Shown here: positions 42,351 to 64,000 of the stretch, piece after piece
How positions within the stretch are numbered: the first letter of the stretch is position 1
How the letters are laid out: every line of letters begins with the position of its first letter
Assembly (NCBI GenBank): GCA_051439605.1
Contig: JBFRWN010000015.1
Coordinates: 21,378 to 85,377 of the forward strand
Direction: 5' to 3'
Source of the DNA: Synechococcus sp.
Lineage (GTDB): Bacteria; Cyanobacteriota; Cyanobacteriia; Thermostichales; PCC-7336
DNA: 64,000 nucleotides
Notes under the pieces: generated by a model
What the model saw: the letters and a program-made list of their open reading frames with translations, nothing else
Database searches by the model: none
What the model was told of the DNA's origin: nothing
Program-made: the position numbers and the translations under genes

Positions 42351-44471
42351 CTATTCTTTCACAATGTGTGGAGTCATCAGCAGAACTACTTCCCTGCGAT
42401 CGCTTTCCGTACTTTCGTTCCTAAACAGAGCACCCAGAAGAGGAATATCACCCAAGATGGGTACTTTCTCAACAGTGACCAGATCTGTATCTTGAATCAG
42501 ACCCGACAGCACAAACGTTTGACCGTCACGCAAGCGAATTTGCTGGGTGTTGAGGGTTCTTTGACTGAGCAAAGTAATCGTGGTTAACCCTAGCTGTTCT
42601 TGGCTGGCGGGGGAAGAGACTTGAGGTGATAAGTCAAGACTGACAAAGCCGTTATCGTCAATCCGCACGTTACGGACTGACAAACTGACCCCAGCATTCC
42701 CAATAACTGCGGTCTCAGTGGTCAACAGTGTTGCTGGGTCGGTGGTGATTTCAACGTTTGTAATGACCTCATCACCAATTGCTATTGTGGTGAAGCCCCC
42801 ATCACTCACCAGCACTTTAGGATCGGCTAGAACTTTCGATCGATTGTCCTCAATCAGGAGATTAATGTTTATTCCTCCCTCCAAGGGCTCCACTCGACGA
42901 GAGTCGTAATCGAGAAATAATCCACCCGGACCAATAGTCCCCAGGAAGTTCCCAGCGTTAAAGAAAGAGTTGACATCGAGATCGAAGTCACTCCCAAGAT
43001 TGAAGTCGATCAGCTTGAAGTCAATTATCGCTTGGCGCTTGCGAATATCTAGCTGGGCAATTTTGGCACCAACGAGATCCAGTTGGTTGGGGGTACCAAC
43101 AGCCGTAACCGAGTTGGTACGAGTATCGCCGTAGAATTCGACCCCCTCAAAAGGCCCCCCTTCACCAGCTAGTTCTTCGAGGGTATTGAGGATGCCGACG
43201 ACTTCAATGTCCTCTCCCGTGACCGTGCCCACTTCACCAATAGACGGTTCCACTCCGCCAAAACCAAGGGTAGTGTCTTCCACATAGGCCTGGTTAAGAC
43301 GATAGGTCCTCAGAGTTTTTTGTTGCACCCCTGGAAGAGATTGGCCAATAAAGATAGTGCGGCCAACCCGTTCTGCCTGCAATTCGTTCAGCCTCAGCAC
43401 AGAGTTAAACACCGTTTGGAGAGGAGAATCTACCACGTCCAACGATACCGTTGAACCCGGAGGAACATCGTTTAGAACCACATCTAAACCAGCCCGTCTC
43501 ACCAGCAAGCTAAGAACGTCAGCGACAGGAGCCTCTTTTAGCGTCAGGGTAACGAGTTCTCGGCTACCGAGTTCCACCGAAGGTGCCATCAAAATGATGT
43601 CACCCGTAACAATGTCACCGACCGGCGGGGCAGCTGCAGTCGTCAACCGGTGGGTAGGGTTACTTTCCGTAATCGGAGTTGGCACGCTAGGGTCAGTGGA
43701 TGGCGTTGCAGCAATTTCAGGAGAAACAGAACCAGCAGCCGCATTGGGGTCAGCACTCTCATCAAATACCGAGGGGCCTGAACTCGAAGGCGCAGCTGCA
43801 CGATTGCGGTAGGTATCGATTGGGGACAGCAGACCGTTCTCAAGATAAACACCGCTCTCCGTCGGTTTGTTGAAGCTCTCTGCACCGCTCTGTGCTGGCG
43901 AGTGAGGGGCAGCAGCAGTTTCATTCTGAATACTGCTACCAGCATTTGGGGACGGTTGCGCTGTGGACGACTGTGGAGATTCTATGGACGGGACATTGGC
44001 GACCTCTTCTCGATCCTGCAATCCCTCAAAGTCAAAGATGAGCTGATTGTCCGTTCGTTCAGACAGAAGACCTTGAGGGGCATCTGCCCCCCCCGTGACG
44101 CGAATCTGGACGCTGTCCGATCCAGTTTGGCGGGCTTCAATTTCACTCACCCCGGGCACAGGATTGGGCTGCCTCAGTTGCTGTGAACCGTCAGGCAAGT
44201 CTAATGTAGCGTTGGCAATATTGCCCACCCAGGCATTCCCCTGCTGTGAAAAAATCACTTGGGGCTGACTGTCTCCTGACAAGGCGATCGCCAACCGGAC
44301 CGTATCACCCTCTTGAGTGAGGTCAATCGCTTGAATGGCTGTGGTTTGGCTAGCGCTATTGGCCGCTCTCGCGATCGGCATCCGAAACTGTGGAGCTAGA
44401 AAGCTCACAGCAGTCAACGGTAAACTCAACGCTAAACTTGCTGCTAGGCAACTTTGCAATCGACGTTGCAT
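42351..44471 (-). CDS. pilQ: Type IV pilus secretin with AMIN domain
   Basis: Signal peptide, AMIN-like N-terminus, RLRDGQTFVLSGLI, KVPILGDIPLLGALFR. Confidence 0.92.
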   Translation of the reverse strand: MQRRLQSCLAASLALSLPLTAVSFLAPQFRMPIARAANSASQTTAIQAIDLTQEGDTVRLAIALSGDSQPQVIFSQQGNAWVGNIANATLDLPDGSQQLRQPNPVPGVSEIEARQTGSDSVQIRVTGGADAPQGLLSERTDNQLIFDFEGLQDREEVANVPSIESPQSSTAQPSPNAGSSIQNETAAAPHSPAQSGAESFNKPTESGVYLENGLLSPIDTYRNRAAAPSSSGPSVFDESADPNAAAGSVSPEIAATPSTDPSVPTPITESNPTHRLTTAAAPPVGDIVTGDIILMAPSVELGSRELVTLTLKEAPVADVLSLLVRRAGLDVVLNDVPPGSTVSLDVVDSPLQTVFNSVLRLNELQAERVGRTIFIGQSLPGVQQKTLRTYRLNQAYVEDTTLGFGGVEPSIGEVGTVTGEDIEVVGILNTLEELAGEGGPFEGVEFYGDTRTNSVTAVGTPNQLDLVGAKIAQLDIRKRQAIIDFKLIDFNLGSDFDLDVNSFFNAGNFLGTIGPGGLFLDYDSRRVEPLEGGININLLIEDNRSKVLADPKVLVSDGGFTTIAIGDEVITNVEITTDPATLLTTETAVIGNAGVSLSVRNVRIDDNGFVSLDLSPQVSSPASQEQLGLTTITLLSQRTLNTQQIRLRDGQTFVLSGLIQDTDLVTVEKVPILGDIPLLGALFRNESTESDRREVVLLMTPHIVKE

Positions 44472-44692
44472 ACTCATCTCTTCACACCTCAAAAAATCAA
44501 TTGACTCGAACGGAGTCGTCACACCAGAAAAATGTTCTCTGTTTCCATCGCTCGTTCAATCCGAATCCTGACAATCTGGACATCTGAAAACCCATGAACA
44601 AACCATGAGATAGCAAAACCAAGAGATATGCAGATTGGGGAACAGATAGATTGAGAGATAGGCAGAAAGCTAGAACTAGGGAACCATTCGCA

Positions 44693-45400
44693 TTACTCCT
44701 GAGTAGGTTCTTCAGCTGCAGGAATCGCCACCGGAATTGAACTGTCGTAGACAAAGGCATCCAAATTAAACCGAGTGGTTTGGATCGCCGTTTCGCTATC
44801 GACATCCACGCTTAAATTGGAAACTTTAAATAGGGTTTCCAATCGTTCGATGTTGCCCATCAAGTCAATCCCCGACTGATACGACCCGCTGTTCACGGCA
44901 ATTTGGGTCGAGTTCTGAGTGATTTGGGGTTGAATTGACGCAGGGACATTAGACCCTGCAGGTTGAGGAGCACTGGGCACAAAACTAGAGAGTACGAGGT
45001 CACTTTGCTCAACCAGGCGACTGACTTCCAAAAGCTGAGTATTGACATTCTCTGGAGTGGGTAGCAAATCGCTAATGGCAGCATTCAAAGCCCTAGCGCG
45101 CTCGATTTGAGCATCTAAATCCTGCAAGCCTTCGATCTTCTGTTGGATGCTACTCAGTTGCGATTGCTTCGTTTTGAGCTCTTTTTCAATCGCATTCATC
45201 TGTTCAAAAGTGGGCTTTAGGGAGAAAAAGCTGAGAGCACCGACACCAATAATGCCAAGAGCACCGACGATTAACCCCATCCGCACTGGAGTGAGCTCTA
45301 GACCCAACACCGTAACAGTGGATTGCGCCCGATCGAGGGCTGCCAACTCTTCCGGAGAGGGAACATATTCCTCCTCACCATCAAATCCGCCGTAGGTCAT
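44693..45400 (-). CDS. pilO: Type IV pilus assembly protein PilO
   Basis: TM + coiled coil, NIERLETLFKVSNL; located between pilN and pilQ. Confidence 0.8.
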   Translation of the reverse strand: MTYGGFDGEEEYVPSPEELAALDRAQSTVTVLGLELTPVRMGLIVGALGIIGVGALSFFSLKPTFEQMNAIEKELKTKQSQLSSIQQKIEGLQDLDAQIERARALNAAISDLLPTPENVNTQLLEVSRLVEQSDLVLSSFVPSAPQPAGSNVPASIQPQITQNSTQIAVNSGSYQSGIDLMGNIERLETLFKVSNLSVDVDSETAIQTTRFNLDAFVYDSSIPVAIPAAEEPTQE

Positions 45401-46095
45401 CACTGCACCTCCAAATCGCGCAGAATCTCAATCTTTCGTACCAAACCACTGGAACCACTAGCGGCCAATGCATCCAGCAGTTCATCGAGTTTGCGAGCCG
45501 TCAACTGAAGCCGCAGCCGATAGTTGACCACGCTCGCCTCTGACCCTTCACCTTCCCCCAGGACTGCACTTTCAATTACGGCATTGGCCACTAATGGGGA
45601 TTGCAGCAATGTGAGTTGAAAGTCGTTAACGCTCTGAAATTGATTGGACTGCCCCTCAAGCGTCACGGTTTTGCCGCTCGCAGAGATTTTGGTCAGCCAG
45701 ATATCTGAGGGAGCTTGATTGCGAATGTCTTCCAGGATGGCAGACCAGGGTTGGACATCGTTGAAAAACGTCTTGAAGGCTTCTGTGCGAGCATCAATGC
45801 CCGCCAGTTCAGCTTGTAAGCGTTCTAACTGCTGTAATTCCGCTTCAGCACCGGCCAGCTCTTCATCGATCGTGACCTGTTCAGCTTTGAGGGTGTCTAA
45901 GCGACGACGAAACGTAAAGTCCGCCACTGCATAGGCCCCCAAAAGAATTAAAGAAATGACAACCCCAATCAAAATGGCGTTGACTCCCCCCAACAGGCCT
46001 CCTCCGACGCCGGAGCTTAAAGCAGAACGCTCGGTGGGGACTGGCCCCTGGTGTTCCTGTCGCTGCTTAAGAAAGTTAATTTCTGGAGTATGCAC
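45400..46095 (-). CDS. pilN: Type IV pilus assembly protein PilN
   Basis: EINFL motif, TM, coiled coil, PWSAILEDIR..P, VNDFQLTL. Confidence 0.9.
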   Translation of the reverse strand: MHTPEINFLKQRQEHQGPVPTERSALSSGVGGGLLGGVNAILIGVVISLILLGAYAVADFTFRRRLDTLKAEQVTIDEELAGAEAELQQLERLQAELAGIDARTEAFKTFFNDVQPWSAILEDIRNQAPSDIWLTKISASGKTVTLEGQSNQFQSVNDFQLTLLQSPLVANAVIESAVLGEGEGSEASVVNYRLRLQLTARKLDELLDALAASGSSGLVRKIEILRDLEVQ

Positions 46096-46109
46096 GGTAT
46101 TTTTCTCCG

Positions 46110-47204
46110 TTAGTTCTCCCGAAGGCCGAGCCCGACAGCCACCCCAAGGGAGGGCCGCTCTGCTTCAGAAATATCGATTGAGGATGGGATGGAGACCCCA
46201 CCCAGCGGGTTGGCTAGAATCACGGTTTGGCCCATCTGCTGGCCCATGAACACATCGATATCCCCCAATGTGGCCCCAGCTCCAGCCAGAAGAATTTGAA
46301 CCACCGGGGCACTGCCATCTTGACTGGCATAAAACTCGATGGAGCGCTGCAGTTCATCGGCGAGATCCACCAACACTCGGGCTACAGCAGAACTCCCCGG
46401 GTTTCCAGCAGGTCGTTCTCCTAAATCTACATCCACCAGAGGGAGCTTGATAGATTTCAGCAGATTATCGGCAGTAGACGCCGGAACGTTGAGTGCCTGC
46501 CCCAGCACCTCCTGCATTTGGGCGGTACCAATGCCGATTGTGCGCGTAAATTGGGGAATACCGGAGACAATAATGTCAATCTCAGTGGACTCGACACCAA
46601 TTGCCGCTAAAGCAACTGCCTCTTGGGGTCCAAATTGAACCAACTGATCTTGAATCGACCGGATAATGGCAAAGCTTGACAACTCAATGGATTTTGCCTC
46701 CAAGCCTGCCGCATTCAACACCTCAGCGTAGTTATCCACGATTTCTCGGGGGACAGCAACCAGCAGCACCTCCATTTCTTCTGTGCCATCTGGGGAAACT
46801 TGTATCCCGAGCGGCTGATAGTCAATATCGGCTTCATCCCGTGGAAATGGAATAAACAGCTCGGCTTCTTGATTGAGCACTGTATCTCTTAATTCATCCT
46901 CCTGAAGATCGGGGGGTAATCTGAGCAGCCTGACAATCGCCTCGCGTCCGGGGATAGCCCCAGCTGCAGCAGACTGTTTAATCCTGTTATCCCCCAGCAA
47001 CTGCCTAAGGGTGGAACCGACCGCGATTGGGTCGAGGACCCTGCCATCCTCCATGGCTCCGACAGGCATAGGTGTACTGGCATAGTTGGCAAGCTTGATG
47101 CCTGCCCCCTGCTGCTTCATTAGAACAACGGAAATCAGCTCGGGGGTTAAATCCACCCCCAACAGATTATTTCTACCGCCGCCAGAAAAGAGATTTTTGA
47201 ACAT
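46110..47204 (-). CDS. pilM: Type IV pilus assembly protein PilM
   Basis: LGVDL actin-like start, EAELFIPFP, EVLLVA, ELQRSIEFY, VAVGLGLR. Confidence 0.93.
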   Translation of the reverse strand: MFKNLFSGGGRNNLLGVDLTPELISVVLMKQQGAGIKLANYASTPMPVGAMEDGRVLDPIAVGSTLRQLLGDNRIKQSAAAGAIPGREAIVRLLRLPPDLQEDELRDTVLNQEAELFIPFPRDEADIDYQPLGIQVSPDGTEEMEVLLVAVPREIVDNYAEVLNAAGLEAKSIELSSFAIIRSIQDQLVQFGPQEAVALAAIGVESTEIDIIVSGIPQFTRTIGIGTAQMQEVLGQALNVPASTADNLLKSIKLPLVDVDLGERPAGNPGSSAVARVLVDLADELQRSIEFYASQDGSAPVVQILLAGAGATLGDIDVFMGQQMGQTVILANPLGGVSIPSSIDISEAERPSLGVAVGLGLREN

Positions 47205-48014: not shown

Positions 48015-48482
48015 TTAAGCAGCTTTCGTGGCGCGGAAAATATCGCCAATTTCAGTCACCATGGACTTGAGCTGATTTGCAGCAGCTACATCGATGGTGC
48101 GCTTAACGGCGGAGCACTGCTTGGTGGCCTTGTGGATTTTCTCGGTTAGGTCAGGGTACTTCGCAAAGTGCTCGGGCTTGAAGTAGTCAGTCCAAAGGAT
48201 AAGCAACTCTTTCTTGCACTTCTGGGCGTACTCTTCGTTAACGCTAGTCATACGGCTAATGGTTTTGTCGTAAGCAACCTGAGCAGCAGAGTCACCTGCA
48301 GCAGGTGCTTCTAGAGCAGCTAGCTTTTCGTGCATTTTCACAACGGTTTCAGCAGCCCAGAACATAGAATCGGGCTCGTATACACCGCAGGGAACATCGC
48401 AGTGGGCGCTAGCAGCAGGCAGGGAGGAGCCATTTTCTAGGCGATTGACAATTGCTTTCCAGCTTTTGGAAACAAAATTCAC
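48015..48482 (-). CDS. sodN: Nickel superoxide dismutase precursor
   Basis: Leader followed by Ni-hook HCDVPCGVY; ELLILWTDYFKP. Confidence 0.95.
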   Translation of the reverse strand: MNFVSKSWKAIVNRLENGSSLPAASAHCDVPCGVYEPDSMFWAAETVVKMHEKLAALEAPAAGDSAAQVAYDKTISRMTSVNEEYAQKCKKELLILWTDYFKPEHFAKYPDLTEKIHKATKQCSAVKRTIDVAAANQLKSMVTEIGDIFRATKAA

Positions 48483-54091: not shown

Positions 54092-54256
54092 AACTAAAAC
54101 CCTTTATAAAAGTTCACTCTTCCCATCATGGCTGCGGATGCGGCGATCGCCCAAATGCAATCGCTGCAAACACGTTTTCTTTACTCAAGCGGTAAAGCCG
54201 CGTAATCTGCACTCGCTATACTGCGGTAACGCCAGTCCGTTGGTTTGGGTAGCTAG

Positions 54257-56353
54257 GTGAGCTTAAAAGACCTGATTATTCAGGAGACCTATCGCAGTGA
54301 TGACTGTGACCTAGTTGAGGATTTTTACGAGCCTTGCCTACAACATTCGACCACGTACGATCGCGCTGCGGGCTATTTCTCTAGTTCATCTCTGGCGGCG
54401 ATCGCACAGGGGCTAACCGCGTTTATCCGTGGCGGAGGGCGAATGCGGTTGGTGACTTCGCCCAAGCTATCCGAAGAGGACAGTTGGGCGATCGCCCAGG
54501 GGTTAAAGCAACGAGATGAGGTGATTACTCGTACCCTTTTGAGAAGTCTCGATGGAAAGTCCTTACCCGATCTAGGCAAACAACGGTTGGCTGCTCTCAC
54601 CTGGCTGCTAGCAAACGGGTTATTGGATATCAAGCTAGCGATAGTACCCTCGCACCGAGGCATCTTTCATGAAAAGGTGGGCATTTTTGCAGATGCTGAC
54701 GGCAACTTAGTGACGTTTAGTGGATCGGCCAACGAGAGTGAAAATGCTCTCAGACATAATTTTGAAGTATGGGAAATTTTTACATCTTGGCAAGCGGGCG
54801 TAGAAAGCCGCGCAAGGCGAAGAGCCCAAGCGTTTGAGGACCTATGGCAGAACCGCACGCCAAAAGTCGATGTCATTGATTTTCCGGAGGCAGTGAAGCG
54901 ATCGCTAATTGAAACCTATTGTCCCAGTCGTCCTCCCACTCAGGAGTTTAAAGTAGCTAGCTCGGTAGGTCCCTATAATTTTTCTCCTTCAGGTACACCA
55001 GCTTTACCCAAAGGTTTAACGTTACGCTCCTACCAACAACAGGCTGTAGAGAATTGGTTCAAGAACAAGGGACGCGGCACGCTGAAGATGGCGACAGGCA
55101 GCGGCAAGACGATTACGGCACTAGCGATCGCCACCCGCCTGTTTGAGACCATCGAGCTCAAAGTTCTGTTGGTGGTCTGTCCCTACCGCCATTTGGTCAG
55201 TCAGTGGGCAACAGAATGTCGAAAATTTGGACTGAAGCCTCTTTTGGCGTTTGAGAGTGCACAACGGTGGCAAGAGAATTTAGCGACACAACTGTATAAC
55301 GTGCGATCGGGTTCGCAAACATTCCTGACGATTGTGACCACGAATTCCACACTTATCGGTCAGCGGTTGCAATCGCAGTTGCAGTACCTGCCCGCCAAAA
55401 CATTGATTGTGGGAGATGAAGCCCACAATTTGGGGGCACGTCGGCTAGAAGAGAGTTTGCCTCGCAACGTTGGCTTGCGTTTAGCGCTGTCGGCGACTCC
55501 GGAGCGCTATTTTGATGACTCGGGCACGCAGCGAATTTTTGACTATTTCGGGCCTGTGTTGGAACCGGAATTTACCCTCAAGGATGCAATTCGAGCGGAG
55601 GCTTTAGTTCACTATCTCTATTACCCAATGTTGGTGGAGCTAACGGAGAGCGAGGCGGAAGAATACGCGACATTGACGGCAAAAATTGGGCGGTGTATCG
55701 GATTGGGAGGGGCAGACGCGGAGGAGAACGAAGCGTTGACGGCGTTATTGGTGAAGCGATCGCGGTTGGTGGGGGCGGCAGCCAACAAGTTGGTGGTGTT
55801 GCGGCAGCTGATGCAAGAGCGGCTGGATACCTCCCATACGTTGTTCTATTGCGGTGATGGTGAGGTAGAAGACGAGGTAACCGCAGAGACGAGGCGGCAG
55901 GTGGAGGCGGTGACGCGGTTATTGGGGAAAGAGTTGGGATATCGGGTGAATACCTATACGGCGGAGACATCTTTGCAGGAACGCGAGCAGTTGCGGCAGC
56001 AGTTTGAATCAGGGGAGTTGCAGGGATTGGTGGCGATTCGCTGTTTGGATGAGGGGGTGGATATTCCGGCGACGCGGACAGCAGTGATTTTAGCGAGCAG
56101 CAGCAATCCCCGGCAGTTTATTCAGCGACGGGGACGGATTTTGCGACGGCATCCGGGGAAGGATAGGGCGACATTGTTCGATGCCATTGTGGTGCCGCCG
56201 GAGATGGGAGAAAAGACCATGGAGGTGGAGCGAGGGTTGTTGCGAAAGGAACTGAGACGGTTTGTGGAGTTTGCGGATTTGGCGGATAACGCTGGCGAAG
56301 CGCGAGCACATCTGCTACCACTGCAGAAACGTTATGGGTTGCTGGATTTGTGA
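54257..56353 (+). CDS. pbeA: PLD-nuclease + SF2 helicase (DNA phosphorothioation-associated restriction enzyme, PbeA-like)
   Basis: YDRAAGYFSS, PLD motif FHEK..GSANES, MATGSGKT, DEAH, LSATP, LDEGVDIP, QRRGRILR. Confidence 0.8.
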   Translation: MSLKDLIIQETYRSDDCDLVEDFYEPCLQHSTTYDRAAGYFSSSSLAAIAQGLTAFIRGGGRMRLVTSPKLSEEDSWAIAQGLKQRDEVITRTLLRSLDGKSLPDLGKQRLAALTWLLANGLLDIKLAIVPSHRGIFHEKVGIFADADGNLVTFSGSANESENALRHNFEVWEIFTSWQAGVESRARRRAQAFEDLWQNRTPKVDVIDFPEAVKRSLIETYCPSRPPTQEFKVASSVGPYNFSPSGTPALPKGLTLRSYQQQAVENWFKNKGRGTLKMATGSGKTITALAIATRLFETIELKVLLVVCPYRHLVSQWATECRKFGLKPLLAFESAQRWQENLATQLYNVRSGSQTFLTIVTTNSTLIGQRLQSQLQYLPAKTLIVGDEAHNLGARRLEESLPRNVGLRLALSATPERYFDDSGTQRIFDYFGPVLEPEFTLKDAIRAEALVHYLYYPMLVELTESEAEEYATLTAKIGRCIGLGGADAEENEALTALLVKRSRLVGAAANKLVVLRQLMQERLDTSHTLFYCGDGEVEDEVTAETRRQVEAVTRLLGKELGYRVNTYTAETSLQEREQLRQQFESGELQGLVAIRCLDEGVDIPATRTAVILASSSNPRQFIQRRGRILRRHPGKDRATLFDAIVVPPEMGEKTMEVERGLLRKELRRFVEFADLADNAGEARAHLLPLQKRYGLLDL

Positions 56354-56460
56354 TTTGTGGTGGGGGAACCCCCTACATCCCCCACTTGTGGGGGACTTGT
56401 TAACAGGTTCTCGGATGGCCTTTTGGAGTTACCGATTTTTGTAGATTTTGGAGGCAGTCA

Positions 56461-56649
56461 ATGGCAAAGGAATCGGACACTGTTGAGCCAACGATGGAGG
56501 ATGTGCAGGAGCCGATTACGACTGCACCGCAGCAGGTGAAGCAGATTATCGAGCGGGTGTTGAGGATCGAGAAGGATCGTCTGGATAACAACAATCGCGG
56601 GCACATCAATGAAGACATTTTGCAAGTGGTGAAGGACGAAATTCGGTGA
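56461..56649 (+). CDS. Small helical protein (PbeB-like by position)
   Basis: GGAGG RBS; stop overlaps the ATPase start (GTGA coupling). Confidence 0.65.
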   Translation: MAKESDTVEPTMEDVQEPITTAPQQVKQIIERVLRIEKDRLDNNNRGHINEDILQVVKDEIR

Positions 56650-58730
56650 AGCTGATTGGATTGCGGCTAAAAAATTTTCGGCCTTTTTACGGCACGACGC
56701 CCGAGTTGAAGCTGGGGGGAGCAGCGGGGCGAAATATTACGGTAATTCACGGCAATAACGGTTCGGGTAAGACTGCATTGCTGAATGCCTTTACTTGGGC
56801 GCTGTACGAGTCGTTTACAGCGGCACTGGCATCTCCCGAACAGTTGGTGAATCAGCGGGCGATCGCCGAGGCAGGGGTCAACCAACTGGTGGAATGTTGG
56901 GTGGAGGTGATGTTCGAGCACGAAGGTCGGAAATATCGGGTGCGGCGGGTGTGTCGGGCAACACAAAATGCGAACGGCGAGGTGACTCACAGTAAGAGCG
57001 AGCTGCAGTTACAAACCTGCGGAGATGACGGACGCTGGCAGTTCATGCTCTCCAATCAAACGCCAGAGGATGCCATCACGCGAATTTTGCCCAAGAGTTT
57101 GCACCAGTATTTTTTCTTTGATGGGGAACGAATCGAGCGGATCGTGCGATCGCAGAATCGGGCGGAGATTGCGGAAGCCACCAAGAAGCTAATCGGGCGG
57201 GAGGTGTTGGAGAAGAGCATCCTGCACTTAAAAAATGCTCGCAAGACGCTGGAGCAGGAGTTGGAACGGATTGGGGATGCGGAAACGAAGAAGTTTTTGG
57301 CGCAGAAGACCGAGCTGGAGGCGAAGCGCGATCGCCTTTTAGAGAGACAAGATGAAATTGAGACAGAACTAGCCCATCATGCCGACCGGCAAAACACCCT
57401 GCGGGAGCAGTTGCAGGAGCTGAGTGGGGCGGAACAACTGCAGTTGCGGCGGCAGGAATTGAAAGCCTCACTGGCAGAGCATCGGGAGCTGCTGGCTCAG
57501 AGTAAGGAGGTGTTGAAAAAAGCGATTTCGACGCGGGGCTATACCGTGTTTTTGGGGGAGGCAACGGCGGCGTTTCGGCAGATGGTGGAGGGGTTGAGGC
57601 AGCGGGGGGAGTTGCCTGCGGATGTGAAGCAACAGTTCGTGCAGGATTTGCTCGATCGCAACTACTGCATTTGCGGCACAGAGCTGCACGAGGGCAGCCC
57701 AGAGCGGAAGAAGGTGGGGGCTTGGCTGGAGAAGGCGGGGTTGGCGGATGTGGAGGAGCAAGTATTCAAGCTGGCGTCGGAGGTGGATCGGATCGATCGC
57801 CAGGCGGAGGAGTTTTGGGAGGAGGTCGATCGCGAGCAGGCGAATGTTAGCCGCTTTCGGGACGTTATCGGGCGAGTGCAGACGGAGTTGGAGGGGATTG
57901 ATGAGCAGTTGCGGCAGTTCCCACGCGAGGATGTGCGGCAGTTGCAGGCGCGGTTGGACGAGTTAGAGGACAAGGTCAACGATTTGACGTTGGAGAAGGG
58001 AGGAAATCAATTTAAGGTTGCAGAGTTGGACGAGCGGATTCAGGCGTTGGGCAAGCGGATTCGCGAGCACAAGAAAATGGAGAAGGATCAGCGGCTGGCG
58101 CAGAAGCGGATTGATGCGGCGGAGGATGCGATCGCCCGCCTGGTTGAGACTCAGAACAATTTAGATCGGATGTTTCGGGTGCAGTTGGAGCGCAGGATTC
58201 AGGAGATTTTCGGTCAGATTTCGTTTAAGTCGCAGGTGCCCCGCCTGAGCGAGAAGTACGAGCTGACGCTGGTGGATACCGTCGCCGGGCAGGAGGTGCC
58301 TGCCGGGGCTTCGACGGGGGAGAACCAGATTTTGAGTTTGGCGTTTATTGGAGCGGTGATCGATCGCGTGCGGGAGTGGAGCCGCAATCGCAGCAATTTG
58401 CTAGTAGCTCCCGAGAGTGGCACGTTTCCGGTGGTGATGGATTCGCCGTTTGGCACGTTGGACGAGCTGTATCGGCGGCAGGTGGCGCGGTTGATTCCCA
58501 AGTTGGCGAATCAGGTGGTGGTGCTGGCGTCGAAGACGCAGTGGCGGGGGGAAGTGGAGAAAGAGATGGAGAAGCAGATCGCGCGGGAGTACGTGCTGTC
58601 GTTTAATTCCACCAAGCAGGATGGGGAGCGGGATGAGATCGAGCGGCAGGGGGAGAGCTATCCGTTGGTGCGATCGAGCCCGAATGAGTTTGAATACACT
58701 GAGATTGTGGAGGTCAACCGCAATGGTTAG
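56646..58730 (+). CDS. Rad50/SMC-like ABC ATPase with Zn hook (PbeC / DndD-like)
   Basis: LKNFRPFYG, Walker A GNNGSGKT, FFFDGE, coiled coils with central CICG, signature ASTGE, Walker B VMDSPFGTLD. Confidence 0.85.
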   Translation: MKLIGLRLKNFRPFYGTTPELKLGGAAGRNITVIHGNNGSGKTALLNAFTWALYESFTAALASPEQLVNQRAIAEAGVNQLVECWVEVMFEHEGRKYRVRRVCRATQNANGEVTHSKSELQLQTCGDDGRWQFMLSNQTPEDAITRILPKSLHQYFFFDGERIERIVRSQNRAEIAEATKKLIGREVLEKSILHLKNARKTLEQELERIGDAETKKFLAQKTELEAKRDRLLERQDEIETELAHHADRQNTLREQLQELSGAEQLQLRRQELKASLAEHRELLAQSKEVLKKAISTRGYTVFLGEATAAFRQMVEGLRQRGELPADVKQQFVQDLLDRNYCICGTELHEGSPERKKVGAWLEKAGLADVEEQVFKLASEVDRIDRQAEEFWEEVDREQANVSRFRDVIGRVQTELEGIDEQLRQFPREDVRQLQARLDELEDKVNDLTLEKGGNQFKVAELDERIQALGKRIREHKKMEKDQRLAQKRIDAAEDAIARLVETQNNLDRMFRVQLERRIQEIFGQISFKSQVPRLSEKYELTLVDTVAGQEVPAGASTGENQILSLAFIGAVIDRVREWSRNRSNLLVAPESGTFPVVMDSPFGTLDELYRRQVARLIPKLANQVVVLASKTQWRGEVEKEMEKQIAREYVLSFNSTKQDGERDEIERQGESYPLVRSSPNEFEYTEIVEVNRNG

Positions 58731-59385
58731 TGTTTCGCCCCAACCGTCAATCGTTCAGACCGATAAGTGGGTGAAGGCGAGTTGGGCTGAGTTTGAGGCG
58801 GCATGTGCCAGCCCTGCTTTGGTTGGAGGGCGATTTTATTATGTTGGCGATCGCATGAGGATTGAGATGCCGCCGGTTGGTTCTTCCCACTGTCAAGACG
58901 ATCCTGTAGTGTCGCGAGTTGTGAGCCTATTTGCCACCGTCAAGGGTTTGCGGGTGAAGGAGTTGGGCAACGCCAGTTTTCGGAAGATGGGGGAGCTGGA
59001 GTTTCAGCCAGATATTGCCTTTTATATTGGTGACGATCTGAGGTTTCCGCCTAGGGGAACGGCTCCCATCGATCTGAACGCAGTTGGGGTGCCGACGCTG
59101 GCGATCGAGATTTCTTCGACCAGCTTGAGTGACGATTTGGGGGCGAAGCGGTTGATGTACGAGGCATTGGGGGTGAAGGAATATTGGGTGGTGGATGTCA
59201 GTCAATGCGAGGCGATCGCATTTGAAATGTCTGAGGGATATAGCGGGCGCATTTACGAGTCTCGGGTGTTGCCAGGGTTGCAGATGTCTGTGGTGGCAGA
59301 GGCATTGCGACGCAGCCAAACAGAAGATGACGGCACGGTTAATCGTTGGTTGATGGAGACATTCGCGAGTGAAGGTGAAGGCTAA
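58723..59385 (+). CDS. Uma2 family endonuclease
   Basis: IEMPPVGSSH, QPDIAF, PTLAIEIS, DDLGAKRLMYEALGVKEYWVVD. Confidence 0.9.
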   Translation: MVSVSPQPSIVQTDKWVKASWAEFEAACASPALVGGRFYYVGDRMRIEMPPVGSSHCQDDPVVSRVVSLFATVKGLRVKELGNASFRKMGELEFQPDIAFYIGDDLRFPPRGTAPIDLNAVGVPTLAIEISSTSLSDDLGAKRLMYEALGVKEYWVVDVSQCEAIAFEMSEGYSGRIYESRVLPGLQMSVVAEALRRSQTEDDGTVNRWLMETFASEGEG

Positions 59386-60120
59386 TGTCGATTCAGTTGG
59401 ATGAAAAGATTTTGGCGCAATTATCCGAGCACGGGGTGACGGTGCCCCCCACTCAAGATGATTTGACTACGACGATGGGGAGCCGATGGATACGCCCCGC
59501 CATGCTGCTCAAATGCGTTAGTTTATTCCCGTTACGGTTGTGGTGGAAGGATCGCGATGAGGGGTTTGTGGGGGGCAATACGTTTGTCCACTACAGCCTG
59601 AAGCAGGTGCGCGATCGCGATTTTAAAGGACCGTTTTTTTTGCGGTGTTGGGGGTGCCGAAGCGGGAACGCAAGAGTTGGGTAGTGTGGGAGGAAAGTAA
59701 GGGACCGGATGTGGTGGTGGAATTACTGTCGCCGAGTACGGCAGAACGGGATAAAACCGTGAAGAAGGCGATTTATCGCGATCGTCTGCGATGTGCAGGA
59801 GTATTTTGGTTCGAGCCGTTGGGGGGGAGTTGGCGGGGTTCTTGCTGACTCGGGAGGGGTACAAGGTTAAGAAGTTGGAGGGCGATCGGTTGGTTTCGGA
59901 GGTGTTGGGGTTGGCGTTGGTGCGCTAGCACGGGGTGTTTGAGGAGATTGAGGCAGATTGGGTGCGATGGGCGACGTTGGAGGGGGAGGTGTTGCCGTTG
60001 GAGGAGGAATTGGCGGAGCGGGCGATGCGACAGGTGAAGGTTGAAAGAGAAAGAGCTGATGCTGAAAAAGAGCGGGCGGAGCGATTGTGGGAGTTAGGGG
60101 TTGACCCGGATGAAGTGTAG
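59385..60120 (+). pseudogene. Decayed Uma2 family endonuclease
   Basis: Fragments in different frames (YDDGEPMDTPRH, FVGGN, RKSWVVWEESKGPDVVVELLSPST, RWATLEG, ELGVDPD) with several frameshifts and TAG stops. Confidence 0.85.
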
Positions 60121-60243
60121 CGATCGGGTAGCTCGTTAAACCATGTGCGAGCTCGGCAATATTGAATTTGGTTAAAAGCATTTCTCAAAGAGCATTTTAA
60201 GTTATATTCGTGTATTGTTTAATTCGAATGTTAGCTCGAAAGC

Positions 60244-60723
60244 ATGTCTAGAGCTCAGATTACAGACAGAATCAGAATTGCTCGAAATAAATCTGACTTT
60301 GTGATGTCTCTAAAGTCGGTGAAACAACAGGGAGGGCCATTTCAGACGTATGCAGATATCGTCAATTTTGCTGCTGCCATTGGTTTGATGCATATGAAGC
60401 GTGAACCTATTGTAGAAGCTTCAAATCATGATCCAGATCCTATTCCACAAGAGCAATTCTCGACTCAAGGGTATGTTGCAATGATAGATCTGGCAATGAT
60501 ATTAGACGACAAAGATCCGAAGAACTTAGCTCAAGATGATTATCGTTCAGAACGAGCGAGAGTTTTTGAGGAATATGCAAATGCAGGACTTGAGATTTTA
60601 GAAGAATCGCTAAAGGCAGCTGCAGACTTACAGGACTCTCTTCTATTGTTTCTATCAGACCATCGCAAAGAAAAAATTCTTTCTAGAACTAGTTTTGATT
60701 TGAGTGATTTTCTGTCGAGCTAG
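60244..60723 (+). CDS. DNA phosphorothioation-associated protein 4-like (PbeD-like)
   Basis: RIRIARNK, GPFQTYADIVNFAAAIG, FEEYANAGLEIL motifs. Confidence 0.75.
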   Translation: MSRAQITDRIRIARNKSDFVMSLKSVKQQGGPFQTYADIVNFAAAIGLMHMKREPIVEASNHDPDPIPQEQFSTQGYVAMIDLAMILDDKDPKNLAQDDYRSERARVFEEYANAGLEILEESLKAAADLQDSLLLFLSDHRKEKILSRTSFDLSDFLSS

Positions 60724-60732
60724 AGGGGAGTC

Positions 60733-61335
60733 TTGGAAAAATTAGAGGGATTGGCCTACTACGCAAAAAAGTTTGAGCGATTGCGGGTTGATCGCTCTTA
60801 CGGAGTTGCACCCCATAAACCAATTCTGCTGCTGTCAGTGATGGAGCTGATTTTCAAAGGAGCGATCGCAGAGAATAGAATTGTACTGTCACCAATTTTA
60901 ATAGCAACCTTCTTAAAATATTGGAGCTATCTTGGCACGCCCAGACATAATCCCGATATATCTCGTCCCTTCTTTCACATGAGAAGTGGGAAATTCTGGC
61001 ATCTATATGCCAACTCTGGTTTTGGGAGAGTTATTGCAGACAAGTTAAGGCTTAAAAACTATTCAGCAGTTAAACAGGCGATTTCACATACCTATCTGGA
61101 TGAAGACCTGTTTGATTCCCTACAAGATAATGTGACAAATACTAGTCTCAGAAGTGTATTGGTTTCGCGCTGGTTTTCAGGTCGCTATGAAGAGACAACT
61201 AGAATTTTGAAGTCTCAAGAAATCTTAGATGAAAATGAATACCTTCAGCAAAAGTATGCTTCTTTTTATCACTGTAGCGACTTAGCCTCCACACTTCGCT
61301 CGATGGATCGCCAACTAGCATGGTCAAATATTTAA
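60733..61335 (+). CDS. Stand-alone sulfur-binding-domain (SBD)-like protein without nuclease domain
   Basis: LRVDRS..APHKPILLLSV and RPFFHMRSGKFWHL; no HNH motif; GAGGGG RBS before TTG. Confidence 0.65.
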   Translation: MEKLEGLAYYAKKFERLRVDRSYGVAPHKPILLLSVMELIFKGAIAENRIVLSPILIATFLKYWSYLGTPRHNPDISRPFFHMRSGKFWHLYANSGFGRVIADKLRLKNYSAVKQAISHTYLDEDLFDSLQDNVTNTSLRSVLVSRWFSGRYEETTRILKSQEILDENEYLQQKYASFYHCSDLASTLRSMDRQLAWSNI

Positions 61336-62276
61336 GCTACTACATCAAAAAAATTACCATGTTGAGGGTGGATCGCTCTCGCGGTATTGCACCTTATCAG
61401 CCACTTTTGATCTTATCTTTGCTAGAAACAATCGAGCAAGGGTTAACAGTACAGAATAAGTTTTTTCTGGGGCCAGAGCTGATCTCGGTTTTTATCAAAT
61501 ATCGAAATCAGTTATCTTCCTCTATTCATCAGGCAGATCCCGCACAGCCATTTTTTCACATGAGTAAGAAAAAAGGGAGTTTCTGGCACCTCAAACCAAA
61601 AGCTGGTCACGAGCATATGCTCTCTTCGAAGATTCGACTGAACTCCCTAAAACTCTTGAGGGAAAATGTTGAATACGGTTATTTCGATTCCGAACTCTTC
61701 AGGCTTTTACAAGATCCTATTTCTAGAAATAGTTTGACAGCTGCACTTGTACAGAAATGGTTCCCAGACAAGTTGGATGAAATTTCAAACTTATTACAGA
61801 TTAGAAGCTTTGAACGGTTACGTCGATCTCTCAAAGAAGCTGGGGGTGCTGTCTACAGTGTTGAAGACTCGGCTGATGACATCGGAATGGTCGTGAGAGA
61901 TGCTGCCTTTAGAAGAAATATTGTTTCACTTTACGAACAAAGATGTGCGTTTTGTAAGGTTCGAGTGATTGATAGAGATCATAACAATATTGTAGATGGC
62001 GCACATATCAAGCCCTTTTCAGAGTTTCGCGATAATCTCCTGAATAACGGGATTTCATTATGCAAAAACCATCATTGGGCCTTCGATCGCGGCTGGTTCG
62101 GCATTAATGATAATTATGAAATATTGATTCCGAGCGATCGCTTCCACGAAGAGTCTCCTCAGCACACACGACCCATGAAAGACTTTGCTGGAGAAGTTAT
62201 CACTTTACCTCTGAGAGAAGAACACTATCCCCGACCAGAAGCATTACAGTGGCATCGTGACAGGTGGGGCATTTGA
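61320..62276 (+). CDS. SBD-like + HNH endonuclease (modification-dependent, type IV-like)
   Basis: APYQPLLIL / QPFFHM N-domain; RDAAFRRNI, CAFC, DGAHIKPF, NGISLCKNHHWAFDRG. Confidence 0.85.
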   Translation: MVKYLSYYIKKITMLRVDRSRGIAPYQPLLILSLLETIEQGLTVQNKFFLGPELISVFIKYRNQLSSSIHQADPAQPFFHMSKKKGSFWHLKPKAGHEHMLSSKIRLNSLKLLRENVEYGYFDSELFRLLQDPISRNSLTAALVQKWFPDKLDEISNLLQIRSFERLRRSLKEAGGAVYSVEDSADDIGMVVRDAAFRRNIVSLYEQRCAFCKVRVIDRDHNNIVDGAHIKPFSEFRDNLLNNGISLCKNHHWAFDRGWFGINDNYEILIPSDRFHEESPQHTRPMKDFAGEVITLPLREEHYPRPEALQWHRDRWGI

Positions 62277-62490
62277 ATTGCCAACGTTCTTATTCATCTA
62301 CGTCCATCGGGGGATTGGGTATTTGCACGGCGATCGCAGCATTCAAACTACCGAGAATCTCATTCAACTTGCCCTTGATACCGCTGATTCTTAGATCGCG
62401 GCGATCGGGCACCTAGGATTTCTGTTTGGGTTGCTGGGGCGATCGCTTGCGGCAATCATCTAAACATTGAGAGGTTGAATCCCTACCCGC

Positions 62491-62988
62491 GTGAAAACAG
62501 ACTCAATTTTCTATCAGTTATTCGCAGTCTATCCGGCTAGCTTTTTCGAGCTGGTAGGCTTACCCGCTGCAGAAGCCCAGTCCTATCGGTTTGACTCAGT
62601 CGAAGTCAAGCAAACGGCCTTTCGTATTGATGGTGTCTTTTTGGCACCTGGCGATCGTCCGTCAAGCCCCACCTACTACGTCGAAATCCAGTTTCAATCC
62701 GATCCCGATCTCTACAAGCGGCTATTCTCCGAAATCTTCCTGCATCTGCGTTACGACACCTCCAACCACCCTTGGCGGGCTGTCGTTTACCAAGAAGCTT
62801 TGCGGGAATGTTGCGAGGAAGGAATCCATAAAGGGCTGCATCGTGTGGAGATCGCGGCATCTAATCCACAGAAGATCTCATCCAACTTGCCCTCAGAACA
62901 GCCGAATCACAGTCCACACAAACAGCCCCTTCCAAACCTTGACGACACCCAAAGCCGTTATTACGCTGTAATCACAAGTCAAGGCTAA
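62491..62988 (+). pseudogene. Rpn/DUF2887 recombination-promoting nuclease remnant
   Basis: MKTDSIFYQLF, SVEVKQTAFRIDGVF, YVEIQFQ, then an apparent jump to C-terminal YQE..EEG and a non-homologous tail. Confidence 0.7.
62939..62972 (+). promoter_or_regulatory. Putative sigma70 promoter with overlapping palindromic operator of the TA operon
   Basis: TTGACG(62939)-N17-TACGCT; ATTAC-gct-GTAAT palindrome at 62960-62972. Confidence 0.5.
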
Positions 62989-62992
62989 AGTC

Positions 62993-63232
62993 ATGCCAGA
63001 CCAAAACGCTTCAACCACAAAAGTGCGGAGATCGGGGAATTCCGCCTCGGTGACCCTCTCCAAAGAAATTCTTGAACAATCCGGTATTCAATTAGGCGAC
63101 TCCGTAACCATTTCCGCCAAAGACGGACGCATCATTATCGAACCCATCGATCCGGATTTTGAAGAAGCAATGCAACTCTACCGGGAATTCAGTTCTACCC
63201 ATCGCAATGTCATGCGAGAACTCGCTAAATGA
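62993..63232 (+). CDS. AbrB/MazE-family antitoxin
   Basis: KVRRSGNSASVTLSKEIL...GDSV...IIIEP; ATGA overlap with the toxin gene. Confidence 0.9.
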   Translation: MPDQNASTTKVRRSGNSASVTLSKEILEQSGIQLGDSVTISAKDGRIIIEPIDPDFEEAMQLYREFSSTHRNVMRELAK

Positions 63233-63624
63233 CAGCTCCTCGATGGCTGACTGCAGACATCGTTATCGCTATCCACGACACTTCGATCGCCCAATTTGGG
63301 GGTTCCCCTTGCATTCGAGATCGCGGACTATTGGAATCTGCGCTCGCCAGACCCCTAAATATGTATGCCTATGAAACTCCCGATATCTTTACGCTAGCCG
63401 CCGCTTACGGATACGGAATCACCCAAAATCACGCCTTTATCGATGGCAACAAGCGCGCAGCACTGGCTGCAATGGCTGTATTTCTAGGTCTCAATGGCTA
63501 TACCTTCGAGCAGCCAGGTCCTCAAACCGTTCTCGTGATGGAAGGTCTGGCCCATGGAAGTGTAAGGGAATCAGAGCTAGTGGAATGGCTGAGAAAGAAC
63601 AGTGTCGAGTGGCGATCGCATTGA
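63229..63624 (+). CDS. doc: Death-on-curing (Doc/Fic) toxin
   Basis: IRDRGLLESALARP, HAFIDGNKR motif. Confidence 0.92.
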   Translation: MTAPRWLTADIVIAIHDTSIAQFGGSPCIRDRGLLESALARPLNMYAYETPDIFTLAAAYGYGITQNHAFIDGNKRAALAAMAVFLGLNGYTFEQPGPQTVLVMEGLAHGSVRESELVEWLRKNSVEWRSH

Positions 63625-63898
63625 AATCTCGTCTAGATCTTTTTCACGCTGAAGTCTGGAGTTTTCTAGAAGGCATTCAGAAGCTCGTAATCCTGCGCCG
63701 AAGGCGAGCCTAGTTCGAAAACCATAGTTTTTGGAGCTGACCTAAAGACCTTTGAAGACAATCCCGATCGAGCCTGTTTCAATGCCTGTCGGGCTTGATA
63801 GCATGCCAGCATAGAAGTCCCTCTCTGAGATACAAAATTTTCCTGTCAGCTTCGGACGGTATTGCCGAGGGGCCTAGTCACTACAAGGATGAAGGGCA

Positions 63899-64000
63899 AT
63901 GAAAGCAGTTGTCATACACCAACACGGCTCAGCAGACGTGCTGCAATACGAAGACATTCCTCCACCTTCTATCAAACCGCGTTGCCTGCTGGTCAAAGTC
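63899..64000 (+). CDS. Zn-ADH / quinone oxidoreductase (MDR) family, N-terminal fragment truncated by the window end
   Basis: MKAVVIHQHGSADVLQYEDIPPPSIKPRCLLVKV. Confidence 0.75.
   Translation, partial: MKAVVIHQHGSADVLQYEDIPPPSIKPRCLLVKV

Follow-up and report, generated by a model that had tools for sequence, protein, structure and literature searches.

PbeABCD of Haloterrigena jeotgali A29 (Xiong 2019, PMC6459918), which corresponds to the CxC ABC-ATPase system of Rakesh 2024 (PMC10853773), blocks unmarked invaders in a host whose DNA is marked with phosphorothioate (PT), and it fails against a PT-marked virus. How it senses PT is an open question, and solitary Pbe copies are common (320/553; PMC6459918). 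With respect to nucleases carrying a sulfur-binding domain (SBD), all members characterised in the papers cited here act on PT DNA (PMC7461809, PMC6224610, PMC10602919), and the SBD of Hga binds all five natural PT contexts (Hu 2023, PMC10602919). PT-dependent nucleases are reported beside dnd genes in <3.6% (PMC7461809). In the seven SBD clades of PMC10602919 the SBD is fused to a nuclease, a kinase or an unknown domain, none being a stand-alone SBD, and our searches found no published description of a stand-alone SBD gene. Moreover, wHTH+SAD(SRA)+HNH nucleases in dnd loci have been proposed as the real restriction arm (PMC10853773). Finally, dndFGH are reported to be absent from cyanobacteria, where PT writers are said to lack restriction partners (PMC8569181).

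Here we analysed a window of 64,000 nucleotides from Synechococcus sp. together with 300 related genomes. We give roughly even chances to the explanation that the locus derives from a conserved cyanobacterial PT island by deletion of the writer, and that this island has two complementary arms, Pbe and a PT-cutting SBD-HNH nuclease. While the Pbe module and this kind of nuclease are known parts, the stand-alone SBD (solo SBD) is the new element.

Gene content of the locus

The features of the locus are as follows:
54257..56353, + strand, pbeA, fusion of a PLD/HKD-type nuclease domain and an SF2 helicase, 698 aa (PADLOC PbeA 827 bits; TIGR04095 657 bits, cut-off 600)
56461..56649, + strand, pbeB-like small protein, 62 aa (from size and position; no family match)
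56646..58730, + strand, pbeC, CxC Zn-hook ABC ATPase, 694 aa (PADLOC PbeC 955 bits; DndD model 162 bits, below the cut-off of 246)
58723..59385, + strand, Uma2-family putative endonuclease (PF05685 76 bits)
59385..60120, + strand, second Uma2-family gene, broken, in three reading frames (fragments only; alignments with intact relatives run through frames 1, 3 and 2)
60244..60723, + strand, pbeD-like, DNA phosphorothioation-associated protein 4, 159 aa (TIGR04062 129 bits, cut-off 74)
60733..61335, + strand, solo SBD, 200 aa (SBD of Hga, 8h0l, E 9e-19; no nuclease domain)
61320..62276, + strand, SBD-HNH endonuclease, 318 aa (8h0l E 6e-14; TagI HNH E 3e-5; PF13391)
~62290-62394, + strand, dndE 3'-end scar, last ~33 codons and stop (HMM from DndE of 30 relatives; DNA alignment)
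62850..62918, + strand, further dndE-like tail in a more advanced state of decay, within the end of a truncated DUF2887/Rpn-like frame (alignable to the first scar)

A sequence-only reading of the window had described a co-directional run from the PLD-SF2 helicase gene through SBD-HNH, and this run was confirmed, including the 9 bp between the pbeD-like gene and the solo SBD and the overlap (16 bp) of the latter with SBD-HNH. The proposed Pbe identity is likewise supported by the PADLOC and TIGRFAM models for PbeA, PbeC and associated protein 4. Two details had to be revised: the first of the two Uma2 genes is intact and the second is a pseudogene, and the ATPase labelled Rad50-like/SMC does have a Zn hook, but belongs to the CxC/Zn-hook clade and not to SMC (PMC10853773).

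PbeA carries HxK at 138, Walker A at 281, DEAH at 387 and motif VI at 623, and Walker A, CxC (at 341), signature and Walker B are present in PbeC. PADLOC gave no match for PbeB and PbeD at the locus; size, position and conservation fit, with relatives of the pbeB-like gene between pbeA and pbeC in 41 loci, and the TIGR04062 cut-off was passed by the pbeD-like protein, which we infer from its size and position to be PbeD. Save for the broken Uma2 gene inside it, the PbeABCD/CxC module looks intact as judged from its sequence. The gene order, with the putative pbeB and pbeD, is that of PbeABCD, with strong PADLOC scores for PbeA and PbeC and a solitary state that is common for Pbe; the differences are the Uma2 genes before pbeD, the SBD genes after it, and a writer represented by the dndE scar. 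A Uma2 gene is a frequent passenger between pbeC and pbeD, with matching position in many relatives. Promoter and terminator scans of the locus gave chance-level signals only. Pseudogenes and scars flank the locus genes, and toxin-antitoxin genes lie downstream.

Both SBD assignments of the sequence-only reading were borne out by sequence and structure matches to solved SBDs, and the predicted models of both fold like these (best match Hga 8H0L, TM 0.87-0.90 on target). SBD-HNH consists of an SBD (residues 1-150), a short linker and an HNH domain from ~190. The pocket positions are Y26, Q27, Q76, P77 and H80, with Y-Q as in SprMcrA and the proline kept; the active site (CxxC, H229, N243, CxxH) is invariant in 45/45 aligned relatives. 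It shares the SBD-linker-HNH layout, the CxxC/CxxH zinc site and the pocket proline with SprMcrA, EcoWI and Mae9806I (PMC7461809, PMC7470945), and differs from them in that its clade often stands beside intact dnd (full dndC within 12 kb in 20/72 loci), and in that it scores below the NF045808 cut-off (114 bits, cut-off 180) and has a solo SBD partner. In a look-up for Mae9806I, no Microcystis name appeared among the 40 entries listed. The wHTH+SAD+HNH proteins are also SBD-bearing HNH nucleases inside PT islands; the nuclease studied here has no SRA (SAD) domain, neither as a Pfam match nor in the predicted model, and sits between pbeD and dndC, and a solo SBD is not described in the consulted part of PMC10853773.

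The solo SBD (predicted model with pLDDT 84.8, matching 8h0l, 5zmo and 7cc9) has H28, K29, R78, P79 and H82 at the pocket positions, such that 4/5 pocket residues of Hga are kept, among them H-K and the proline. Hga itself has its SBD fused to a PD-(D/E)XK nuclease, and its L75 position is Arg or Gln in the SBDs of the locus. The best 120 homologues of the solo SBD are all 162-214 aa, i.e. without a fused domain. It is present in 24/71 SBD-HNH carrier genomes and forms one conserved clade, as assigned from a quick tree. Recent local duplication was rejected, the two SBDs being only 35% identical and the solo SBDs forming their own clade, as was a single frameshifted SBD-SBD-HNH gene: relatives have two genes, and 744 longer candidates gave 0 matches, which is a weak test. 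An apparent twin outside cyanobacteria, in Hymenobacter, has an unrelated upstream gene, and in the 15 matching plasmid records no annotated solo SBD underlies the match.

Traces of the sulfur-writing genes

That no dnd genes are in view, as the sequence-only reading had it, holds for intact genes; immediately after the stop of SBD-HNH, however, comes the dndE scar. No other of the 148,056 frames of the genome gave a significant match to the HMM (E 1.2e-5 for the scar, 1.6 for the runner-up), and because of the scar we suggest that a writer once stood at the locus and was later lost, apparently through deletion of the sulfur-writing genes in this genome. The second dndE-like tail was not significant in HMM runs and is supported by its alignment with the first scar. 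One contig of run X3 joins at this second tail with sequence reading like DndE, and a contig of a sibling sample bypasses pbeABC.

In agreement with the earlier view of a host without a PT writer, the whole-genome search for dnd/ssp genes found no intact writer. Specifically, DndC, DndB, SspD, DndE and DUF4007 gave no match in the genome, the DndE and DUF4007 searches being run without a positive control, and the one PAPS reductase reads as housekeeping CysH. The assembly is 99.98% complete in 143 contigs and the locus contig ends at window position 64000, which leaves some chance that a writer was missed. A complete DndCDEA-PbeABCD system includes a PT writer, dndCDE(A), in the host; here only the dndE scar was found.

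In a complete genome of the same genus, decayed remnants of pbeC-uma2-pbeD are still recognisable, as is a dndE tail sharing 76% identity with the scar. There the tail is 250 kb from the pbe remnant, and the scar studied here could have arrived separately. SBD was found in 0/6 same-family genomes, showing that the island is patchy in near kin.

Conservation of the island in related genomes

The 300 related genomes contained 72 pbeC loci, 41 full dndC and 71 SBD-HNH carrier genomes, and the neighbourhood was set to 12 kb. The expectation that SBD genes are regular companions of pbe held: SBD-HNH was found within this distance in 30/72 pbeC loci, in all 30 downstream on the same strand, and was missing from 42/72, some of them on short contigs. 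Furthermore, it adjoins 20/41 full dndC and is unbroken in 19 of these 20. The consensus order is pbeA-pbeB-pbeC-(Uma2)-pbeD-(solo SBD)-SBD-HNH-(HTH)-dndC-dndD-dndE, and the same layout is present on a Chloroflexota plasmid. The SBD pair is often kept where pbeA-C are cut to fragments, and in many loci it stands next to a truncated pbeA and pieces of dnd. Full dndC is absent from 48/71 SBD-HNH carrier genomes and from 31/70 pbeC genomes. A phage search for DndC gave 18 records, none of them a cyanophage with full DndC. Selection is purifying, in the solo SBD clade too (dN/dS 0.04-0.36 in all 31 unsaturated pair values), also among writer-less carriers, the averages spanning branches where the writer may still have been present.

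The linkage counts (30/72, 20/41) together with the dndE scar argue against both chance neighbourhood and a repurposed orphan Pbe. The former, which the sequence-only reading had itself named beforehand as the finding that would undo it, holds that the genes are neighbours in a decaying defence hotspot and have no present function. The flanking pseudogenes and scars, the downstream toxin-antitoxin genes and the sibling-sample contig would fit; order and strand are nevertheless fixed in 30/30 linked loci, motifs are intact and selection is purifying, and we regard this explanation as very improbable.

Also improbable, in our view, is that the six genes act as one system, with the SBD pair turning an orphan Pbe on PT-marked invaders of a host that has no PT itself. 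This idea is in keeping with the six intact genes and missing writer here, with the 31/70 pbeC genomes lacking full dndC, and with pbeD and both SBD genes forming one low-GC block. An obligate unit is, however, contradicted by the 42/72 pbeC loci without the nuclease and by 47/71 SBD-HNH genomes showing no solo SBD, and the parts are lost independently, many SBD loci having a pbeA stub only. Repurposing of an orphan Pbe conflicts with the dndE scar, which favours loss over design, and with the unbroken SBD-HNH beside full dndC in 19/20 loci. An apparent link between the twin SBD genes and writer loss (2/22 vs 21/41 overall) was rejected, since it vanishes within families, where writer presence does not differ between twin and single carriers (2/24 vs 1/15).

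Possible roles of the two SBD genes

The sequence-only reading regarded Pbe and SBD-HNH as following opposed logics; in these islands they stand routinely side by side. Most likely the two complement each other, because SBD-HNH would cut the PT-marked DNA that Pbe cannot stop. In the two-arm explanation the PbeABCD arm would block unmarked invaders in a PT-marked host, and the SBD-HNH arm would cover the gap by cutting foreign PT-marked DNA. PT binding and cleavage by the SBD-HNH clade are inferred from sequence, predicted models and analogy: as in SprMcrA and EcoWI, the pocket would recognise an Rp sulfur of the DNA backbone and the HNH domain would cut at a distance of a few bases. Where the host is PT-positive, SBD-HNH might leave host DNA alone through tight control or because it favours a different PT context; the latter is weakened by Hga, the solved SBD closest to it, which binds all five natural contexts (PMC10602919). 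The solo SBD, probably co-expressed, could serve as another PT reader, one without a nuclease, and guard or tune the cutting step; this is the weakest part of the scheme. In the present genome, without a writer, SBD-HNH could still work as a simple PT-dependent restriction enzyme, with Pbe perhaps idle.

An unbroken SBD-HNH beside full dndC in 19/20 loci, which runs against the <3.6% of PMC7461809, is also expected of a self-sensing partner. With reversed logic, SBD-HNH would sense PT on self DNA, which would keep it off that DNA or license it, and would cut unmarked invaders as DndI or SspE do, with assistance from the solo SBD and possibly from Pbe; cyanobacteria would then have the restriction partner that they are said to lack. 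We consider this unlikely. DndI provides a precedent (PMC11662687), DndI and SspE being PT-sensing nucleases that, like the present putative PT readers, coexist with writers; the reported absence of dndFGH (PMC8569181) agrees with it, as does the proposal of such a role for the wHTH+SAD+HNH nucleases of dnd loci (PMC10853773). SBD distances of SBD-HNH also track PbeD distances (rho 0.85, 25 loci), although neighbours travel together anyway. On the other hand, DndI and SspE carry NTPase switch domains and are described as having a hydrophobic patch, not an SBD (PMC11662687), and SBD-HNH has no such ATPase/GTPase switch domain. Moreover, a nuclease acting on unmarked DNA should be toxic without a writer, as DndI is, yet SBD-HNH is unbroken here, and full dndC is missing from 48/71 carriers.

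The intact pocket and active site beside writers could alternatively mean that SBD-HNH reads host PT and is a suicide effector, restrained by the solo SBD on the sites, by a convergent HTH regulator or by Pbe until infection frees it to cut the chromosome. An HTH gene does face SBD-HNH in ~41 loci, suicide action is discussed for these islands (PMC10853773), and many carriers have broken writers, as occasional self-attack would select. Against this, the solo SBD is absent from 19/20 writer-adjacent loci, purifying selection extends to writer-less carriers, and within five twin-carrying families full dndC is no rarer with SBD genes (3/39) than without (5/88). Suicide action therefore seems quite unlikely to us.

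The solo SBD co-occurs with a second DndC-like gene (14/24 vs 6/47) and may be its specific partner; the distance correlation with this gene, 0.70, is, however, no higher than that with its HNH neighbour (0.77). We tentatively raise the possibility, which we hold to be doubtful, that the solo SBD is a PT reader gene without a nuclease, the first of its kind: a dedicated subunit at PT sites that either licenses or aims Pbe or else shields self sites from SBD-HNH. Joined by SBD-HNH, it would provide cyanobacterial Dnd-Pbe islands with their PT-reading arm, the same parts being turned on PT-marked invaders in writer-less hosts.

SBD-HNH, wedged between pbeD and dndC, and the solo SBD, in a third of the carriers, are concrete candidates for PT sensing by Pbe and for the missing cyanobacterial restriction partner. 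Natural writer-plus and writer-minus copies of the island, of which this locus is a writer-minus copy with six genes intact, make the question directly testable, and a natural stand-alone SBD may serve as a PT-binding reagent. If true, a PT-reading arm would account for PT sensing by Pbe and for cyanobacteria doing without DndFGH.

The pbe module and its SBD neighbours

All genes listed in the sequence-only reading, a Pbe module followed by two sulfur-binding domain (SBD) genes, are present as frames on the plus strand, and what was counted as a second Uma2 gene is a pseudogene spread over three frames. The main features are:

54257-56353 (+), helicase, PbeA
56646-58730 (+), ATPase, PbeC
60244-60723 (+), TIGR04062 protein, assigned as PbeD
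60733-61335 (+), solo SBD, 200 aa
61320-62276 (+), SBD-HNH, 318 aa
about 62290-62394, dndE scar, confirmed by a DndE HMM
62850-62918, second decayed dndE-like tail

In the PADLOC and TIGRFAM check the helicase scored 827 bits on PADLOC PbeA and passed TIGR04095, the ATPase scored 955 bits on PADLOC PbeC and was below the DndD cut-off, and 60244-60723 passed TIGR04062. PADLOC gave no match for the 62-aa ORF or the TIGR04062 protein, and PbeB and PbeD were therefore assigned from size and position. PbeA keeps the HxK nuclease motif and the helicase motifs, and PbeC the Walker A, CxC hook, signature and Walker B motifs. The GC content of pbeD and both SBD genes is 0.40-0.42 compared with 0.51-0.57 for pbeABC; since the mean GC of SBD-HNH in relatives (n=21) is also 0.08 below that of pbeC, this is in part usual for the island.

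A short dispersed repeat lies between pbeA and pbeB (56369-56400) and recurs many times in a same-genus genome. One low-depth contig of sequencing run X2 skips pbeA-C (54172-58587) and one contig of run X3 has different DNA beyond 54172; the left edge may be variable among strains. On the other side (62491-63624), a truncated DUF2887/Rpn-like gene is followed by a pair made up of an antitoxin of AbrB/MazE type and a Doc-family toxin. Judging from translations, 42351-47204 reads as a pilMNOQ-like pilus operon, and 48015-48482 would encode a nickel superoxide dismutase.

The island in related genomes

One set of 300 same-class genomes was searched three times. SBD-HNH matched in 79 of 301 genomes, and leaving out the own genome and seven with distant HNH-only matches gave 71 genomes (72 loci). 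PbeC gave 70 genomes (72 loci; a row at 27% identity and one of the halves of a split gene left out), while 46 DndC matches were above the cut-off, 41 of which were full and unbroken and kept (five partial, split or stop-containing left out). The survey bears out SBD genes as regular pbe companions: SBD-HNH is found ≤12 kb from pbeC at 30 of 72 loci, always downstream and on the same strand, and ≤12 kb from 20 of 41 full dndC loci, 18 loci having both. These counts are lower bounds because contigs are short, and they include kin that are not independent. That the genes are chance neighbours is hardly credible. Of the 41 full-dndC genomes, 39 have pbeC.

The fetched loci represent one island, pbeA-B-C-(uma2)-pbeD-(SBD)-SBD-HNH-convergent HTH-(dndB)-dndC-dndD-dndE-(second DndC-like gene, TIGR04096 methyltransferase). 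Among 82 non-duplicate SBD loci, a pbe or dnd piece is nearby in 32/35 with a solo SBD and 36/47 without. At 19 of the 20 loci that have full dndC beside it, the nuclease is unbroken and retains the pocket proline and the HNH motifs; dndD has a full frame at 18 of the 20 (the remaining two run off the fetched stretch). A Chloroflexota plasmid carries a full dnd operon faced by SBD-HNH, together with pbeA, a small gene and a stub of pbeC. SBD-HNH is also present on eleven cyanobacterial plasmids; among three inspected (two with flanks and one more) dnd is beside it in one and not in two.

The second DndC-like gene (e.g. L008:16008-17222 (-); PAPS-reductase family, ~400 aa; TIGR03183 145 bits, cut-off 290) is found in about 30 related genomes, divergent from the TIGR04096 putative methyltransferase, and often outlasts lost dndCD. 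It accompanies 14/24 with solo SBD vs 6/47 without (within families 14/24 vs 3/15), is absent from the host genome, and might be an independent writer of phosphorothioate (PT).

The host genome lacks two regular members: an HTH_3 gene converging on SBD-HNH, present in about 41 loci (L021:10290-10942 and relatives), and an unknown gene of ~93 aa, present in about 29. In families f28, f29 and f33 (L075-L078, L081, L083, L085, L090) PbeA is without its N-terminal PLD nuclease domain and SBD-HNH and dndCDE are present; here HNH might supply the nuclease. At the dndC-dndD place, one decayed island encodes a protein of 733 aa that includes an Argonaute PAZ domain (L019:12709-14910). A 1248-aa frame (L098:10040-13786) starts as DndC and extends across the position of dndD, which might make it a DndC-DndD fusion.

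Loss of the writer genes

The host assembly (99.98% complete, 143 contigs) gave no match to DndC, DndB, DndE, SspD or DUF4007, the DndE and DUF4007 searches matching in no control genome, and the DndD search found PbeC and two weak matches. Its one PAPS reductase, also the main BrxP match, is from its motifs presumably the housekeeping CysH. tblastn of the host with relatives' DndC, second DndC-like protein, methyltransferase, DndB and HTH gave nothing; relatives' DndE gave a weak match directly behind SBD-HNH, which in an HMM of 30 relatives' DndE is the sole significant match (E 1.2e-5) among 148,056 frames. The claim of no dnd genes in view thus stands for an intact writer and fails for the dndE scar. 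A contig of run X1 spans 58956-64000 with zero differences; hence the junction is not peculiar to the assembly, though X1 may be the source sample and so is not independent confirmation.

A complete same-genus genome retains the tail of pbeC along with a broken pbeD and Uma2 genes that are deleted and broken; 250 kb from these remnants lies a dndE tail that shares 76% identity with the scar. SBD was found in 0/6 same-family and 1/23 same-order genomes.

The two SBD proteins and their possible roles

Both SBD calls are upheld by matches to the solved Hga SBD (8h0l; E 9e-19 for the solo SBD, 6e-14 for SBD-HNH), also the best match of both AlphaFold models, followed by the ScoMcrA and SprMcrA SBDs. 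Against the Hga sulfur pocket H25/K26/L75/P76/H79 (available text of PMC10602919) the solo SBD has H28/K29/R78/P79/H82 and SBD-HNH Y26/Q27/Q76/P77/H80, which shares its Y-Q with SprMcrA (PMC7470945, as far as available). The HNH residues C209, C212, H229, N243, C248, H251 and H252 are invariant in 45/45 aligned relatives chosen out of the fetched loci; no SRA domain was seen in SBD-HNH. Both proteins are predicted to bind PT.

The solo SBD is present in 24/71 carrier genomes (two copies broken), all within five of 40 families; a scan of genome contigs gave 17 loci, with named hosts all cyanobacteria. The best 120 of 2958 profile matches are 162-214 aa, their named hosts cyanobacterial. A quick tree was built from 106 SBD domains, with five duplicate loci and short rows left out. 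In it 34/34 solo SBDs fall to the same side of one branch (SH-aLRT 97), their HNH partners being drawn from many subclades; in the same 25 loci mutual likeness is 66% for solo SBDs vs 56% for partners' SBDs. dN/dS is 0.05-0.30 for solo SBD genes (12/14 hand-picked close pairs; two saturated), 0.05-0.36 for HNH partners (10/12 pairs) and 0.04-0.23 for single nucleases (9/9 pairs). Twins adjoin full dndC and dndD at two loci (L017, L037); an apparent link between twin and writer loss is a family effect. At L013:4134-5640 the usual partner of the solo SBD is replaced by another PT-restriction HNH (NF045808 passed, 270 bits), which faces it in convergent orientation.

The island is conserved, its writer genes were lost here, and the intact readers are under selection in relatives. 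SBD-HNH would be a PT-directed nuclease that complements Pbe, the latter being ineffective against PT-marked virus (PMC6459918, in the part available); this role and the island reading jointly have in our view an even chance. SBD-HNH beside writers needs a self-sparing step, and two other candidates therefore stay. In one, PT is sensed on self and unmarked DNA attacked; this agrees with SBD-HNH adjoining writers, but many of the 48 carrier genomes that lack full dndC have the gene unbroken, which argues against it and makes it rather unlikely. In the other, likewise compatible with adjoining writers, SBD-HNH acts in controlled suicide, which we regard as improbable. A six-gene repurposing of an orphan Pbe is very doubtful and, with chance, fits worst; the sequence-only reading is confirmed in part as an observation and supported in part as an interpretation, its repurposed orphan Pbe not holding.

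Published work already covers Pbe, its solitary form, SBD-HNH enzymes and the SBD nucleases of dnd loci (among PMC6459918, PMC10853773, PMC7461809, PMC6224610, PMC10602919, PMC7470945, PMC8569181, PMC12914056 and PMC11662687, as far as their texts were available). No published description of a stand-alone SBD or of the pbeD-SBD-HNH-dndC order was found in a literature with thin subscription coverage, and the supplements of PMC10853773 and PMC7461809 may list such loci. While its parts are known, the conserved reader pair offers a testable clue to PT reading by Pbe-type islands.
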